Shown here: piece by piece, positions 3,491 through 24,013 of the stretch
Layout: the number at the start of each line of letters is the position of its first letter
Position numbering within the stretch: position 1 is the first letter of the stretch
IMG/VR virus record: IMGVR_UViG_3300012942_000130
Location: 1 to 24,402 of that record
DNA length: 24,402 nt
Source of the DNA: a virus
Taxonomy: Duplodnaviria; Caudoviricetes
Strand: one strand, 5' to 3'
Position numbers and translations under genes: made by a program
Notes under the pieces: model-generated
Database searches by the model: none
Seen by the model: only the letters and a program-made list of their open reading frames with translations
Told to the model about the DNA's origin: nothing

Positions 3491-3568
3491 TCTCTCATGG
3501 TGCAACTGGAAGCGCGCTGGGCGGGTCGCTCCCGTCTGGAGACGCCGGTTCGAGGCCGGCTGAGAGAG
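3491..3568 (+). ncRNA. tRNA-like RNA with extended anticodon arm and no canonical anticodon loop
   Basis: Acceptor TCTCTCA/TGAGAGA (7 bp), TG, D arm GTGC-AACTGGAA-GCGC, 9-bp arm CTGGGCGGG-TCGCT-CCCGTCTGG, T arm GCCGG-TTCGAGG-CCGGC, discriminator G. Lies between ORFs. Confidence 0.75.
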
Positions 3569-3595
3569 CTCAAGCACGAGAGAACGGAGATAACC

Positions 3596-3928: not shown

Positions 3929-3962
3929 CCGGTTGGACGTTTGAGTCTCCAACTGGTACTGT
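3929..3962 (+). promoter_or_regulatory. promoter for the 244-aa gene/ncRNA unit, overlapping an inverted repeat
   Basis: TGGACG(3934)-17 nt-TACTGT(3957); IR CCGGTTGGA 3929-3937 / TCCAACTGG 3948-3956. Confidence 0.62.
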
Positions 3963-4025
3963 TTCACCCATCAGGCAAGCACAGCAAGCCTCAAGCTTAG
4001 GAACGAACGAGGGAAGGAGGGTGAA

Positions 4026-4760: not shown

Positions 4761-5289
4761 CGAGCCGCCACCCGCGCGGCTCCGCCGGCCTCCGTCATCC
4801 CCCCGACGTCGAGGCTGGCGTCCCACTCGAGAGCCGCGCGGGTGGCAACACCCACAGACTCCCGCCAGGCTGACCAGAGGCGTCAGACCCGGTGGGTTCC
4901 GGTTGAGCGACCGGGTGCCCGCAAGGGCAAAGCTGAAGCTCAGGCTTAAGCTCAGCTCTTACCGTGACAGTGGAGGTTCGAGGCCTCCCCCGAGCACCAC
5001 ATGCTCGGGTAGCCCAAGAGGTAGAGGCAGCGGTGAGCGTCAAGCTCAAGTTCTCGCTCCAGCTTGAAGCACGACGGTGATCCCGTGATCGACGATGCTG
5101 GATCCATCACCGCGAGATGGGGGTTCGAGTCCCTCCTGGACCACTACGAGGTTCAGTGGCCGTAACGGCAACGGCGCATGGTGTTAAGCTAAGACCAGCA
5201 GCGACAGTGCACGGGTGAGATACCGTACATTGGATCTTGAAAATCCTACAACCTAGGATGGCCCCCTCAAGGTGAGGAGGGGGTCATCC
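4761..5289 (+). ncRNA. large structured ncRNA with two circularly permuted tRNA-like modules and AAGCUN repeats (boundaries approximate)
   Basis: No credible ORF. 16-bp stem 4767-4782/4831-4846; GNRA hairpin TGCCC-GCAA-GGGCA 4916-4929; permuted modules at about 4958-5037 and 5108-5183; long stem 5074-5226; closing hairpin 5256-5289. Confidence 0.8.
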
Positions 5290-5293
5290 GCCA

Positions 5294-5366
5294 GGACTCA
5301 TAGCTCAGTTGGTAGAGCAGGGGGCTCTTAACCCTCGTGTCGCAGGTTCAAGTCCTGCTGAGTCCA
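5294..5366 (+). tRNA. tRNA-Lys(CUU)
   Basis: GGACTCA/TGAGTCC acceptor, loop CT-CTT-AA, T arm GCAGG-TTCAAGT-CCTGC; CCA not encoded. Confidence 0.93.
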
Positions 5367-5644: not shown

Positions 5645-5742
5645 GGGCGCGTAACTCAACAGGCATGCTGAGGGGTGGCCACCCCGAGGCTACACGCCGT
5701 GGTAGAGGCTAGCGGTTGCGGGTTCGAATCCCGTCGCGTCCA
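5645..5742 (+). ncRNA. tRNA-like RNA, Ala-type acceptor, anticodon arm replaced by small hairpins
   Basis: GGGCGCG/CGCGTCC (G3:U70), A73, T arm GCGGG-TTCGAAT-CCCGT; interior GGGGT-GGCC-ACCCC and CTAC...GTAG hairpins; 98 nt. Confidence 0.75.
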
Positions 5743-6035: not shown

Positions 6036-6051
6036 CGTCACAACTGAACAT

Positions 6052-6236
6052 GGGCGTGTAGCTCAAACGGCAGAGCGGCCCGAAAAACGGTGGGGTGGCG
6101 TGCCAGGAAGTGTTGCGGATGCACCGGGACCGGGCCCGTGGGCGAAAATCCACGGGTTGGGGAACCTTAACCCCCGGCAGGGAAGCGCGTTTCCAGAGCC
6201 TGGCTCAAGGTACGGGTTCGAACCCCGTCACGTCCA
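6052..6236 (+). ncRNA. tRNA-like RNA, Ala-type acceptor, with ~130-nt multi-hairpin domain in place of the anticodon arm
   Basis: GGGCGTG/CACGTCC (G3:U70), A73, canonical D arm GCTC-AAACGGCA-GAGC, T arm ACGGG-TTCGAAC-CCCGT; inserted hairpins CCCGTGG/CCACGGG, GGGG/CCCC, CGGTG/CACCG. Confidence 0.8.
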
Positions 6237-6240
6237 CGAT

Positions 6241-6423: not shown

Positions 6424-6511
6424 GGATGAGGTCGCGCGAAGGCCAAGCGCAGGGGTGCGGTAAGCATCTCGCCCAACCAGGGCGGTGAAGGTTCGAATCC
6501 TTCCTCATCCA
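6424..6511 (+). ncRNA. atypical Tyr-like tRNA (over-long anticodon stem, no U33)
   Basis: GGATGAG/CTCATCC, D arm GCGC/GCGC, arm GGGGTGC-GGTAA-GCATCTC, variable arm GCCC/GGGC, T arm GAAGG-TTCGAAT-CCTTC. Confidence 0.7.
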
Positions 6512-6513
6512 CG

Positions 6514-6763
6514 GCCGGTACCTGCGGAAACCCTTACTCCGCCTGGGTACGGGGAGGCCAACTCCGGTGACCCGCGTTGCGGCGCTCCCGGTGCAAGATC
6601 CCCGTACGCTCGTAGTAGGCGAGCCCGGCACTCTCGGGAGGAAACGGCAGTAAGACGGTTCGAGTCCGTCGTTGGCAGGGCCTAGGCAGTGGCCGAATGG
6701 GTGGCGCAGTTGTGAAGACGAGTGATTGCCACCGCTGGGCGGGTTCGACTCCCGCCCCTCCCA
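6514..6763 (+). ncRNA. structured RNA with two T-arm hairpins and tRNA-like 3' end (fold uncertain)
   Basis: T arms GACGG-TTCGAGT-CCGTC 6654-6670 and GCGGG-TTCGACT-CCCGC 6739-6755 followed by CCCTCCCA; stems GTACGGGGA/TCCCCGTAC and GGTGGCG/TGCCACC. Confidence 0.55.
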
Positions 6764-6789
6764 CTCAGCGCAACCAGGAAGGATGAGAC

Positions 6790-9101: not shown

Positions 9102-9635
9102 ATGGAGATCAACGTGAAGCCGCTGCTGTTCCTGGACGTCGACGGCGTCCTGAACCCCGACTCGGTCAGCTCGGGACGGCGGCCTGAGGGATACCTGACG
9201 CATCGCATGCGCCCCTCAGGCTGGACGAACCCCAGGGTCAAGCCCCTCAGGGTCTGGCTCAACCCGAAGCACGGGGAGAAGCTGCTCTCGCTGCCCGTGG
9301 AACTCGTCTGGGGCACCACCTGGGAGCACGAGGCCAACGAGTGGATCGCGCCGCACGTCGGTCTGCCACAGCTGCCGTTCGTCAGGTTCGACAGTGGCAC
9401 CGCTGGCCCCGGCATCCACTGGAAGACGCGGGACCTCGCCACCTATGCCGCCGGCCGGCCGTTCGCGTGGCTCGACGACGAGCTGCACGTTGAGCGCGAT
9501 GGTGACTGGCTGACGGCGAACGGGGTGGCGAACTTCCTGCTCGTGCTCGTTGCCCCGTTCCAGGGGCTTATGGATGGCCACCTGGACAAGGTGCGAGAGT
9601 GGGCTCTGTCACTGGACGACGGTCAACGCAGCTGA
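9102..9635 (+). CDS. HAD-superfamily phosphatase, Swiss-army-knife RNA-repair (HAD_SAK) type
   Basis: LLFLDVDGVLNP, WGTTWEHEAN, WK, FAWLDDE motifs. Confidence 0.8.
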   Translation: MEINVKPLLFLDVDGVLNPDSVSSGRRPEGYLTHRMRPSGWTNPRVKPLRVWLNPKHGEKLLSLPVELVWGTTWEHEANEWIAPHVGLPQLPFVRFDSGTAGPGIHWKTRDLATYAAGRPFAWLDDELHVERDGDWLTANGVANFLLVLVAPFQGLMDGHLDKVREWALSLDDGQRS

Positions 9636-10249: not shown

Positions 10250-10301
10250 CGAGGGAGGAAGCGAGATCATGACCTTAACACCCCGTCCGAAGGGCATCAC
10301 C

Positions 10302-10748
10302 ATGACGGAAGCTCACGTCTACGACGTGCAGGGCACGCTGATCGACGTCAGCTCGGCGCGATACCTGGTCGAGTGCGCGAAGCCGGACTTCGACGCCTTC
10401 CACGTCGCGACCGGCGACTGCCCGCCCAACCAGGACATCGTCGACGAGACGAAGCGGAGTCACATCGCTCAGAAGGTTGTCATCGTGATGACCGGCATGA
10501 ACGAGAAGTTCCGCCCACTCGTCGTCGCATGGCTGCAGCGCCACGAGGTGCCCTTCGATCTGCTCATGATGCGCCCCAACCGGGACTTCCGCAAGGACTT
10601 CATCGTCAAGGCGGAGATGCTGCGAGAGGCGCGCCTGCGGGGCTTCGTCGTCACACACGCGTGGGACGACAACCCGCAGATCGTGGATCTGTGGAAGCGC
10701 GAGAACATCCCCGTGACCGTGGTTCCGGGGTGGACAGGAACGAAGTGA
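10302..10748 (+). CDS. stand-alone PNKP (T4 PseT-like) 3'-phosphatase-type HAD domain
   Basis: VYDVQGTL, VMTG, LMMRP..DFRKDFIVK, WDDNP motifs. Start could be 10269. Confidence 0.8.
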   Translation: MTEAHVYDVQGTLIDVSSARYLVECAKPDFDAFHVATGDCPPNQDIVDETKRSHIAQKVVIVMTGMNEKFRPLVVAWLQRHEVPFDLLMMRPNRDFRKDFIVKAEMLREARLRGFVVTHAWDDNPQIVDLWKRENIPVTVVPGWTGTK

Positions 10749-20527: not shown

Positions 20528-23500
20528 GTGACCGTGGCGTCTCGCGGATCCATCATCAGCAGTGCCAAGCACATCCCGGGCGGTGCCCGGCCAACGGCTG
20601 CGCCACAGGGCAGCGGTCCCAACTTCGGCGCGGTCTCACCACTCGCTCGACAGCTGGACACCGGCGGTCCTCAGGGCGGTGACTGGACTCGTGCCTACGG
20701 TGGCTTCCTTCCCCGACCGTCCAGTGACTTCACCGAGGGCGCGTTCGGACCGTTCAGTCCGATCCTCCCGGTACCCGTTGACGCGCCCCCACCGGGCGCT
20801 GAGCGGGCTGAACCGCGCCGGGAGGAGTACCGGGTTGGCTGGAACCTCCCGGTGGGTCAGCCGGGCACAGAGGGCATCAAGCTCGCCGACTTCGGTACCC
20901 TGCGTACCCTGGCCGACCTCTACTCGGTGGCACGCGCGTGCATCCAGCTTCGCAAGGCGGAGATCCGTGGCCTGGAGTGGGACATCATGCCCACTCATGA
21001 TGCCGCCAAGTCGATGCGCAACGATCACGCGGCGATGAAGGACTTCGGTGAGCGTCGCGCCAAGGCGATCAAGTTCTTCCGTCGCCCCGACCCCGACTAC
21101 TTCTCGTGGAACTCGTGGATCGACGCGGTTCTCGAGGAGGTCTTCGTCTACGACGCCCTGTCCATCCTGATCCGGCCGAAGTGGCTCAAGGGACGCGGCA
21201 AGGGCCTTCTCGGCAGTGACCTGGACAGTCTGAACCTCATCAGCGGCCCGACCATCCGGCCGCTGTATGACATCAACGGCTCGTACCCACGGCCACCTGC
21301 ACCCGCGTACCAGCAGTACCTCTACGGCGTGCCGCGCTCCGACCTCATGACGATGATCACGGAACGTGACATCGAGGAGGCCGGGCTCAGCGGTGCTGAG
21401 CTGAAGTCCTTCCGTGGTGACCAGCTGCTGTACCTGCCGATGACCCCGCGGCGGTGGACGCCATACGGCTTCCCGCCCATCGAGCGCGCGCTCATCCCGG
21501 TGATGTCCGGCCTTCAGAAGCAGGCGTACCAGCTGGACTACTTCCGCGAGGGCACCGTCCCCGCGGTCTTCGTCTCACCTGGCGGCAGCAACCAGAACAT
21601 GACGCCGAACCAGATCCGCGAGCTGCAGGACGCACTCAACGCCATCGCTGGTGACCCAGCGTGGAAGCACAAGATCATCGTGCTGCCCGCCGACTCGAAC
21701 GTCATGCCGCAGAAGCAGGCGCAGATCGCCGACCAGTTCGACGAGATCGTCATGAACCAGGTCTGCATGGCCTTCGACGTGCAGCCGATGGAACTCGGCA
21801 TCATGCCGAAGGTCTCCACCAGCGTCTCGCCCGGCGCGGCCAACCAGATGTCCAAGGCCACGCAGGACATTCACGAGCGCAAGGCCACCAAGCCGATGCT
21901 CACCTTCCTGGCCGACATCATGACCAGCGTTCTGCGCGAGGTCGCCGGCCAGGACGACATGAAGTTCGTCTTCGAGGGCCTCACTGAGGAAGAGGACGAG
22001 GCGGTGGCAACCGAGCTGCTGGTCAAGCAGATCGGTGCTGGTCTTCGCTCCATCGATGAGGGGCGCGAGAAGCTCAACCTGCAGCCCTGGGGCCTCCCCG
22101 AGACCTCCGACCCCGGCTGGTCCACCCCGAACGGCTGGGTGCCACTCGTGGAGGCCACCGAGGCGCGTCTCACCGACGCCGTGGCTGGACCACTCATGGA
22201 CCTGCCGGAGGGCGCCCCACGAGCCACTCAGATGCTCACGGGTGCCCCACCACAGGGCATGCCACCCACGGAGCAGGCGATCGGCTACGTGCCACCAGCC
22301 GCACCGGGCGCCACCAAGCCTGGCAAGACGCCGCCATCCGCTGGCGTCGCACCGTCAGCCAGCGCCGCCGGCATGAAGCCACGGGTCAACCCGATCATGT
22401 CGGGCCGTCCGCGTGCCATGGCGAGTGGTCAGGGTGCCGGTGCGAGCGCGTCGCCTGGTCACACCGCGGCCACCGCGTCCGGTGGCCGCAAGCCGGTGGC
22501 GGCCGGCAAGGCGAAGGCGATCGACTCTGAGCTTGACGCCCTGGCTCGCCATGTTCGCAAGGGTCGCGACATCTCCAGCTGGTCACCGCGTCACGTCACC
22601 TGGCCATTCCTGGCGGAGATCGCCCGTGAGGCGATCGAGGTGGACATCGACACCGCGATCAACGTCGTCAAGGCGTCGCGTCGCGTCGACCTCAACGGTC
22701 AGGTCACGTACGTGGTCGAGGACCCATCGACCCAGGTGCCGATGTACAACGCGGCTGGCGCCGGTGGTCGAGTCTTCCCGGCTCACGACGTGGACGACAC
22801 CGAGGTACCGACCCAGGACGTCCAGGCCGGCCGCATGCCCGCGTACAGCCGTCCCACCGAGGTCCCGGGTGGCACACCCGGGATCAGCGCAGGCGGGGAG
22901 CCACCTCGATGGGCGCCGCCTGAGGGCACGTCGAGCGGCAACACGTTCAGCGGCACCACCTACTCAGAGCCGCCCAACGGCGGCAACGACGCGGCGATGC
23001 CTGACCGTCGAGGCCGACAGCCCAGTCAGGGTGGCGGCCCACGTGGCCCACAGCAGGATGTCTGGCCGCGAGCGATCGGTGGCCCGGGTGGCGGCCGTCA
23101 CCAGGCCGGCGTCGACAGTCCACCCGGCACGGTGAAGGGCGTCGTGGGTGGCGCTCCCGCCGCTGAGGTTCACGCGGTCATGGCGCGGAACTTTCCACCA
23201 GACGCCATCGAGTGGGTCAACGACGCGCAGTGGACGATGGAGCTCGTGCCGCTTCACGACGTCGACTTCGACAGCGAGGACAGCTGGGCCGCTCATCACC
23301 AGGAGGACCGCGTTCACCACTTCGCTCAGCAGATCGAGAGTGGAGAGAGCGTCAAGCCCGCGATCATGGTGCGAGTCCCCGGTAAGCACCGGCTGCGCAT
23401 CGTGGATGGCCACCACCGCACCCTGGCCTATCGCCTGCTCGGCAAGCCGGTACGCGCCTTCGTCGGTGCCGTTCCGGAGGGCGATGACCGGTGGATGGAG

Positions 23501-24013
23501 ACTCACAGCTCTCAGCTGCACCAGGGCAGCGATCCGGCCAACAAGGGCAAGAAGGCGACTGACATCGTCGCCGCTGGAGTTGCTCTCGTTGCCGGTGACA
23601 CTGGTCGGGTGTTGATGCTGCAGCGCGCCATTGAGAAGAACGGCAAGGCATCCGGCAAGTGGGAGCTTCCCGGAGGCAAGCTCGACCCCGGTGAAACTCC
23701 ACTCGAAGCGGCCAAGCGTGAGTGGTCGGAAGAGGTTGGTTGTGCGTTCCCAGAGAACGTGGAGCTGGCCGGTGCCTGGACCACGCCTGATGGCGTCTAC
23801 CGTGGCTTCGTCTTCGAGATCGCGCATGAGGCCGACATCGACATCTTCGATGGACGTGACGAGGTGGAAAACCCAGATGACCCCGATGGCGAGAAGCCGG
23901 AGGCGGTCGCCTGGTGGGACCTGAAGCTGCTGCGAGGCAACCCTGCGGTTCGCAAGGAGCTCCTGGCGAACTTGGACCTGATGCTCAACGCGATGGGACG
24001 CCACGGTGGCTAA
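20528..24013 (+). CDS. portal protein fused to low-complexity linker, ParB-like domain and Nudix hydrolase
   Basis: Portal: PYGFPPIERA, YFREGTVPA, VCMAFDVQPMELG, SIDEGREKLNL.P. ParB-like: IVDGHHR. Nudix box GGKLDPGETPLEAAKREWSEEVG. Confidence 0.88.
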   Translation: MTVASRGSIISSAKHIPGGARPTAAPQGSGPNFGAVSPLARQLDTGGPQGGDWTRAYGGFLPRPSSDFTEGAFGPFSPILPVPVDAPPPGAERAEPRREEYRVGWNLPVGQPGTEGIKLADFGTLRTLADLYSVARACIQLRKAEIRGLEWDIMPTHDAAKSMRNDHAAMKDFGERRAKAIKFFRRPDPDYFSWNSWIDAVLEEVFVYDALSILIRPKWLKGRGKGLLGSDLDSLNLISGPTIRPLYDINGSYPRPPAPAYQQYLYGVPRSDLMTMITERDIEEAGLSGAELKSFRGDQLLYLPMTPRRWTPYGFPPIERALIPVMSGLQKQAYQLDYFREGTVPAVFVSPGGSNQNMTPNQIRELQDALNAIAGDPAWKHKIIVLPADSNVMPQKQAQIADQFDEIVMNQVCMAFDVQPMELGIMPKVSTSVSPGAANQMSKATQDIHERKATKPMLTFLADIMTSVLREVAGQDDMKFVFEGLTEEEDEAVATELLVKQIGAGLRSIDEGREKLNLQPWGLPETSDPGWSTPNGWVPLVEATEARLTDAVAGPLMDLPEGAPRATQMLTGAPPQGMPPTEQAIGYVPPAAPGATKPGKTPPSAGVAPSASAAGMKPRVNPIMSGRPRAMASGQGAGASASPGHTAATASGGRKPVAAGKAKAIDSELDALARHVRKGRDISSWSPRHVTWPFLAEIAREAIEVDIDTAINVVKASRRVDLNGQVTYVVEDPSTQVPMYNAAGAGGRVFPAHDVDDTEVPTQDVQAGRMPAYSRPTEVPGGTPGISAGGEPPRWAPPEGTSSGNTFSGTTYSEPPNGGNDAAMPDRRGRQPSQGGGPRGPQQDVWPRAIGGPGGGRHQAGVDSPPGTVKGVVGGAPAAEVHAVMARNFPPDAIEWVNDAQWTMELVPLHDVDFDSEDSWAAHHQEDRVHHFAQQIESGESVKPAIMVRVPGKHRLRIVDGHHRTLAYRLLGKPVRAFVGAVPEGDDRWMETHSSQLHQGSDPANKGKKATDIVAAGVALVAGDTGRVLMLQRAIEKNGKASGKWELPGGKLDPGETPLEAAKREWSEEVGCAFPENVELAGAWTTPDGVYRGFVFEIAHEADIDIFDGRDEVENPDDPDGEKPEAVAWWDLKLLRGNPAVRKELLANLDLMLNAMGRHGG

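Follow-up and report, generated by a model that had tools for sequence, protein, structure and literature searches.

Conserved six-base repeats in a tRNA-like RNA encoded beside DUF7873 genes of phages and bacteria

Short repeats on both sides of a phage gene raise the question of which molecule reads them. The window, meaning the whole stretch of 24,402 bases analysed here (a linear virus record, 23% complete), carries a DUF7873 gene (PF25283; 4026–4760, 244 aa, Pfam E 2e-89) with repeats in its leader and in the DNA that follows it. The original prediction was that hexamers of the form AAGCUN punctuate a noncoding RNA and recur in the leader, as single-stranded sites for an oligomeric RNA-binding protein. 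The letters at 3973–3998, 4930–4958, 5042–5070 and 5185–5196 are exactly as given there, and the repeats are confirmed as real, conserved and located at these coordinates. The features of the gene, its leader and the RNA described below are all on the plus strand, as is the Ro60 gene. Elsewhere in the window (20528–24013), the portal protein is joined to a lengthy low-complexity stretch with a NUDIX domain at the C terminus.

Homologous loci were fetched by protein alignment, taking the best 80 of 563 confirmed genomic and the best 80 of 204 confirmed viral loci; owing to this best-80 selection Streptomyces dominates the genomic loci, and the viral contigs include near-duplicates. A single-protein query had no match among genome contigs, whereas the alignment query did find loci. 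A nucleotide profile located the RNA no more than 1.2 kb after the DUF7873 gene in 158 of 161 loci, window included, with 94 of these 158 having seeded the profile. It had no match in L095, L097 and L150, in the last of which the tracts are visible by eye. The association was also examined in reverse: the pattern of the second repeat tract, used alone, gave 140 hits, 25 of them chance matches and 115 RNA copies. DUF7873 lay directly upstream of 105 of the 106 testable copies and one had no such gene within 1.8 kb; in the other nine, the upstream DNA was too short for the test. No other widely common neighbour family was found, the largest ORF cluster being present in 27 of 160 loci, all bacterial. 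The arrangement does vary, as in a Microcoleus phage (L194), where the RNA lies 1.8 kb downstream (+1810) with another ORF between, and in a Ktedonobacterales genome (L009), which has two RNA copies (+899 and +1468 past the stop codon).

The cassette of gene and RNA is real and conserved. DUF7873 comprises 2,331 protein clusters (50% identity) at E 1e-10 or better, spread over Actinomycetota, Chloroflexota, Cyanobacteria and phages, and cultured carriers include Arthrobacter phage Racecar, Rhodococcus phage NiceHouse, Gordonia phage Ronaldo and Pseudanabaena phage Pam2. Rfam yielded no family for the RNA at gathering level, and no description of DUF7873 or the RNA was found in a literature search that covered few subscription journals and had bioRxiv supplements and candidate-RNA tables outside its scope. 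The RNA–protein cassette is apparently undescribed.

Alignment of 117 full-length RNAs, reduced to 79 by dereplication (effective number about 52), revealed what is conserved in the repeats. AAGCUN proved to be the window phage's own spelling; the conserved unit is A-R-N-Y-U-N. Among 553 pooled units from the 79 RNAs, 81% fit ARNYUN and 90% ANNNUN, compared with 21% for RRGCUN and 16% for AAGCUN. At nearly all units, 90–100% of the RNAs have A at position 1 and U at position 5, the exception among these near-fixed bases being the A at 4948 (75%), while positions 3 and 6 are loose. Conservation in homologous loci, on which the original prediction had been staked, holds down to about 29% protein identity among phages. 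The full RNA profile strongly matches five of eight cultured phages with 29–46% protein identity; a Vibrio phage (K479) has the tract AAACTA-AAACTC-AAACTA-A, and looser A...U-N-A runs can be read by eye in Klebsiella and Ralstonia phages.

The density of RRGCT, proposed at the outset as a test, would be a misleading measure and was rejected. The pentamer AAGCT is enriched window-wide (62 occurrences vs 21 expected), probably from Lys–Leu codon pairs, so that only the periodic arrangement of the repeats is informative. The two-unit pattern ARNYTNARNYTNA has nine matches in the window vs 0.6 expected, a number reached in none of 100 shuffles; six lie in 4930–5052 and one in the leader at 3987–3999. 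In four-unit scoring, the best value in the window (28.3) is at 4930 and the best outside the RNA is 15.1.

Three tracts are conserved. Tract 1 (4930–4954) consists of four ARNYUN units plus A; across the 79 homologs its A positions are conserved at 99/99/95/75/99% and its U positions at 100/95/90/92%, and its length is 25 nt in 57 homologs and 26 nt in another 15. Tract 2 (5040–5068) comprises two units, a 7-nt helix strand UCGCUCC and one further unit plus A (A 97/99/97/96%, U 96/99/96%; span 26 nt in 70 of 79). Tract 3 (5184–5192) reads U-N-A-R-N-Y-U-N-A in an internal loop of the second structural module (U 81, A 85, U 99, A 99%). Upstream of tract 1, variable 5′ hairpins fill the interval from the stop codon (4767–4925; 16-bp inverted repeat 4767–4782/4831–4846), with an extra unit AGACTC at 4856–4861; 25 of 79 homologs have an ARNYTCC unit at the same place.

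Between and around the tracts the RNA is structured. Helix P0 pairs 4924–4928 (consensus GAGCG) with 5055–5059 (consensus CGCUC), shows covariation at 4927:5056 (z 8.4 for the helix vs column shuffles) and closes a loop that holds tract 1 and the first part of tract 2. Because P0 joins the bases before tract 1 to UCGCUCC, these two tracts are opposed in a large loop, with module 1 as its cap. This module (4956–5039) is a circularly permuted tRNA-like domain that runs from a T arm through a 7-bp acceptor stem with ACCA loop to a D arm. Its stems covary, all seven acceptor pairs are present in 67 of 79 RNAs, and NCCA is found in 36. Module 1 is absent from 24 loci, where it is mostly swapped for a plain hairpin and tract 1 is retained; it is dispensable in some lineages. 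In L140 and L142, some 80–170 nt past the stop codon, a whole tRNA-like gene is apparently inserted in the module 1 acceptor loop, and in L086 the insert in this loop is a long hairpin.

Together with its closing stems, module 2 extends over 5082–5217, framed by helices 5082–5087/5212–5217 and 5095–5103/5193–5202 (z 17.5 and 23.4), and holds a second permuted tRNA-like domain at about 5110–5180. Its acceptor pairs are complete (7/7) in 76 of 79 RNAs, NCCA is found in 27 of 79 acceptor loops, and its Levitt pair is A-U in 69 and G-C in 10. The T and acceptor stems of both modules are supported by covariation, as are the D stem and Levitt pair of module 2 and the two long closing helices. The RNA ends in a terminal hairpin (5256–5289; 13-bp inverted repeat). 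In 50 of 79 RNAs, a CUUAAAC box is followed within 170 nt by a GGMUAY word, which mostly sits in the final hairpin's loop (e.g. L035:5144–5175); the loop in the window (5269–5276) differs from this pattern. Contigs from RNA sequencing runs of two studies cover gene and RNA in one organism that is about 92% identical to L035. In three of four runs (X10, X14 and X15, not X11), short contigs over module 2 (L035:4999–5089) reach depths of 12,000–25,000, the long contigs having depths of 300–2,400. These deep contigs may be a stable processed piece, a hint only that does not count as evidence, as contig depth cannot rank gene parts.

A motif common to the gene's leader and the adjoining RNA makes the gene's own product the simplest reader, although a host protein could take this part instead. 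We consider it probable, if well short of certain, that DUF7873, likely as an oligomer, docks at periodic sites on an RNA scaffold that mimics tRNA, and that in phages it also feeds back through the leader. The leader copy, AGCCTC-AAGCTT-A at 3987–3999 (two units plus A), is a predicted operator that ends 15 nt before the Shine–Dalgarno sequence and 27 nt before the start codon, and is one of five plus-strand two-unit matches in the window. It fits the conserved unit; the further leader copies proposed within 3973–3998 (AGGC, AAGCAC and AGC) do not. A possible promoter of the DUF7873 gene (3933–3962; weak −35, extended −10 TG-G-TACTGT, start near 3970) was recognised by eye here and in the closest relative, L084, in which the leader copy is degraded; a strict sigma-70 scan for a promoter of the gene found none.

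A strict leader motif was defined as two units, or U-N-A flanking one unit, 6–60 nt before the start codon; the start codons came from an automatic assignment that is wrong in a few cases. This motif is present in 28 of 69 distinct phage leaders vs 6 of 216 leaders that belong to other ORFs of these loci, and dinucleotide shuffles of the phage leaders gave a mean of 5.2 and a maximum of 12 in 300. It lies 10–24 nt from the start in 26 of 37 cases and is missing in 41 of the 69 phage leaders. Bacterial leaders showed no enrichment (3 of 76 vs 1.8 shuffled), and the motif was found in 2 of 20 leadered genes of the RNA-first, mostly bacterial metagenome set. In a broader scored test of 100-nt leaders from all loci, 18 of 149 reached p 0.05 or less, tract 1 windows as positive control doing so in 69 of 79. 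A TANNNT box 5–8 nt before the start occurs in 51 of 80 bacterial vs 5 of 81 viral rows, and these 51 bacterial genes look leaderless. The translational autoregulation originally predicted would fit the phage leaders, in which the motif is enriched, but not the bacterial ones. As the enrichment is seen in phages only, leader feedback would be a phage-side feature, and autoregulation is not the universal purpose of the RNA.

These data also bear on another possible function, in which the RNA would act purely as a sponge in the manner of CsrB and titrate DUF7873 off its mRNA targets, its own leader included. Such a role would account for the many sites per RNA (mean 8.6 ANNNTNA vs 4.0 shuffled) and for the leader copies in phages, and it is consistent with a TANNNT box that 47 of 79 loci (a raw count with no chance baseline) carry in the interval from stop codon to tract 1. 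However, a sponge has no need of a pair of tRNA folds in which a Levitt pair covaries and the acceptor stems are 7 bp long; the leader motif is lacking in bacterial copies, and four-unit scoring of the 24-kb window revealed no further array that is convincing. We therefore consider a pure sponge doubtful. CsrA binds GGA hairpin loops on the sponge RNAs CsrB and CsrC. The likeness is that one motif is common to a multi-site RNA and to sites in mRNA leaders; the DUF7873 RNA differs in that its sites form contiguous periodic tracts rather than GGA hairpin loops, that RNA and protein are united in one cassette, and that the RNA bears tRNA folds. No match to a Csr family was found for the protein (PF25283 only) or, in Rfam, for the RNA.

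The closest structural parallel is YrlA, the partner of Ro60/Rsr (RF02553; Chen et al. 2014, PMC4201824). Both RNAs have the permuted order T arm, acceptor stem, D arm with tertiary pairs (Levitt 15:48) that covary, a closing stem where tRNA has its anticodon arm, and a 7-bp acceptor stem often followed by CCA, and both are found in bacteria and phages. The DUF7873 RNA differs in its partner gene, which for YrlA is Ro60, in having two modules within one RNA of about 300–400 nt, and in its periodic ARNYUN tracts. It might nevertheless be a divergent Y RNA that is bound by Ro60 through the module 2 helix of AUCGA and UUAA, with DUF7873 tethered through the tracts as effector. The module order and weak full-length YrlA matches speak for this, as do a relaxed RNCGA at the module 2 strand in 55 of 79 RNAs (first base G in 4) and a Ro60 gene in the window phage itself (64–1602; Pfam TROVE and VWA_2), which we treat as a context gene only. 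TROVE is also present in 5 of 7 DUF7873 genomes vs 12 of 301 sampled Actinomycetota (the 12 include the unpublished genome G053); all seven genomes are 7–10 Mb in size and so probably related rather than independent, and the co-occurrence probably arises through this relatedness.

Several observations argue against a Y RNA. The Ro60-binding motif GNCGAAN0-1G is found in none of 79 RNAs at the module 2 5′ strand, and the strand opposite AUCGA (consensus UUAAACG) is degenerate in the window phage, which carries Ro60. YrlA genes lie within some 4 kb of Ro60, on the same strand. With one Ro60 query and flanks of up to 4 kb, some shorter, Ro60 was found near the RNA in the window and in 3 of 160 other loci; one query likewise found it in 5 of 16 diverse host genomes. 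Matches to RF02553 remain at 23–29 bits (23.7 for module 1 and 23.5 for module 2 in the window; 28.8 in L165), below the gathering score of 69 bits, whereas Ro60 loci have better YrlA matches of their own (50.7 and 38.6 bits), located 81–137 nt from Ro60 in two Streptomyces rows. With the motif absent, Ro60 rarely nearby and separate YrlA copies at Ro60 loci, the RNA has tRNA mimicry in common with YrlA without belonging to that family, and a Ro60-bound Y RNA is an unlikely identity for it. Beside one Streptomyces Ro60 gene, L164:2838–2902 and 2581–2688 are YrlA-like (28.6 and 50.7 bits, below the Rfam cut-off). Between Ro60 and DUF7873 in the window, ARAGORN calls a tRNA-Ala(cgc) at 3491–3569 that has no Rfam call; this tRNA-like element could be a candidate Y-like RNA of the window phage. 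The passages on phage Ro60 with Y-like RNAs in PMC12135203 and PMC12282133 concern a different system from the DUF7873 RNA.

The repeats could instead be RNA structure in their own right, with units that pair mutually as an irregular helix or switch and involve no sequence-specific protein. The units are palindromic by class (ARNYU; CUGA with UCAG), the segment 4920–4965 of the window folds at −17.2 kcal/mol (z −2.5), and RNAalifold draws a short helix between tracts 1 and 2 (4931–4936 with 5046–5052). Among 24 antiparallel tract–tract registers there is also a weak excess at 4936:5061 (z 4.7), against 17–23 for control stems by column shuffles, which ignore relatedness; true stems range from z 8 to 23. 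Yet variable positions of the RNAalifold helix do not covary (z 1.0), median tract energies across homologs are −4.8 and −2.2 kcal/mol (median z −1.0 and 0.1), and pairing leaves the isolated leader copies unexplained. We thus regard self-pairing tracts as quite improbable. Hairpins from the self-complementary AGCT, raised in the original prediction as a further possibility, do form when the window phage's sequence is folded but are no conserved feature across homologs. The proposal of single-stranded sites fares better on covariation, which the tracts lack, than on energy models, which leave them only 34–56% unpaired. Single-strandedness is thus deduced from evolution and not from folding energies.

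A two-piece permuted tmRNA has its T arm and CCA ahead of the 5′ acceptor strand and a single-stranded region, and the DUF7873 RNA resembles it in module order; it differs in having an intact D stem, no G3-U70 pair for alanine identity and no conserved tag frame. That the tracts template an alternating polar–hydrophobic peptide (KLKLRLKL-like), read in the manner of tmRNA after module cleavage and charging, is suggested by this module order, by the NCCA acceptor loops and by a unit of ARN plus YUN with free third positions (Lys/Arg/Asn/Ser, then Leu/Phe), but is hardly credible given that tract arginines would be AGR 181 times and CGN once (71 vs 988 in adjacent genes) and serines AGY 53 times and never TCN (160 vs 647), that 7-nt units and the 15 tract 1 copies longer by one base break the frame, that frame, start and stop distance are not conserved, with stops scattered in all three frames, and that G3-U70 occurs in 1 of 79 RNAs per module. 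Codon use and frame breaks together exclude ordinary coding; the constraint is on the bases.

The AlphaFold2 model of DUF7873 (mean pLDDT 92) is elongated, with long helices and a long β-hairpin at 151–190; K41, Y43, K116, W137, K155, K158, H172, W188 and R208, basic and aromatic residues, are conserved as a class in 96–100% of 267 sequences, which favours periodic docking. The net charge is near −3 and fold searches found no recognised RNA-binding fold, both of which count against it. Foldseek against the PDB and a viral library gave no clear fold match, a sequence search of solved structures was negative, NCBIfam held no family, and the Atlas returned only unnamed clusters (0.80). A four-copy complex prediction scored 0.24 (mark 0.42; controls not folded) and is used on neither side. 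The sole full-length fold match in a wide search was 3KDQ (Z 7.9, rmsd 7.6, 147/152 residues); the same kind of search with the N-terminal half gave generic helical bundles, 3KDQ not being among the matches listed.

TRAP, a ring protein, reads (G/U)AG repeats in trp leaders, as triplets with 2-nt spacers. The DUF7873 RNA is alike in having short fixed bases at a fixed period, a predicted oligomeric reader and leader copies near the ribosome-binding site. It is distinguished by a period of six with a fixed U-N-A, and by the location of most sites in a separate structured RNA. The pooled A-R-N-Y-U-N units do not follow the TRAP triplet spacing, and no TRAP family or fold was listed for DUF7873 in family, sequence and fold searches.

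In the mechanism that we propose, DUF7873 would read the fixed A and U of the tracts, and its subunits would assemble as an oligomer along single-stranded tracts 1–3, one per six bases. The resulting particle would expose either a single tRNA elbow or two; their 7-bp acceptor stems could be substrates for processing by RNase P and CCA enzyme, as happens with M. smegmatis YrlA. In that case the RNA would be a structural partner balanced with the protein rather than only a sponge, and in phages, surplus DUF7873 is predicted to bind the leader beside the Shine–Dalgarno sequence and repress its own translation. The weakest step is function: most likely a role in tRNA or RNA-damage conflicts, as a protected decoy or as a scaffold for tRNA-targeting or repair enzymes. 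This suggestion comes from context. ARAGORN calls tRNA genes in 45 of 80 phage loci and in 16 of 80 bacterial ones, some of which may be modules of the RNA, and an RtcB-like ORF was recognised by eye in four viral loci. In the window, a tRNA cluster starts at 5294, directly after the terminal hairpin of the RNA, and two HAD phosphatases of RNA-repair type (Pfam HAD_SAK_2 and HAD_PNKP; 9102–9635 and 10269–10748) are encoded near the Ro60 gene and this cluster. A passage in PMC7824862 describes TROVE as an RNA-repair platform in jumbo phages. The cluster also holds tRNA-like elements with enlarged or odd anticodon arms (5645–5742, 6051–6238, 6424–6512 and 6640–6780), the first two with Rfam scores of 31 and 19 bits.

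The protein in 3KDQ is DIP1984/DUF6847 (NF038048, PF20935), whose genes are likewise followed by a conserved RNA-like stretch with T-arm and repeats; these repeats are of GCAC type and not ARNYUN, and profile comparisons between DUF7873 and DIP1984 were not significant. The stretch is seen at L177:1955–2200, L180:1970–2220, L181, L178 and L179, and L183 and L184 have similar repeats; the spacing is 7 nt in L177 and 5–7 nt in the others. The downstream alignment took in L182 (G222), but no conclusion drawn here rests on the unpublished genomes G222 and G257, and Rfam found nothing at the DIP1984 loci. Possibly this is a second repeat-bearing RNA–protein cassette. A bolder idea, which we offer only tentatively, is a new class of self-assembling RNPs: a protein polymer with a six-base period, tracts that act as a size ruler, tRNA mimics with CCA ends that can be cleaved and would serve in phage–host conflicts over tRNA as a decoy or as a platform for repair, and DIP1984 with its GCAC-repeat RNAs as a second branch.

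What is added here is the ARNYUN code, the reverse association of RNA with gene, the loss of module 1 in some loci, arguments that exclude both coding and pairing, and a leader signal limited to phages. If periodic docking is correct, DUF7873, a family of unknown function, would gain a precise RNA target, and a YrlA-type tRNA mimic would be working without Ro60. The purpose of tRNA modules would become testable in a two-part cassette from which evolution has already deleted one module, and a compact protein that reads a six-base repeat code and brings its own feedback site could serve as a useful RNA tool.
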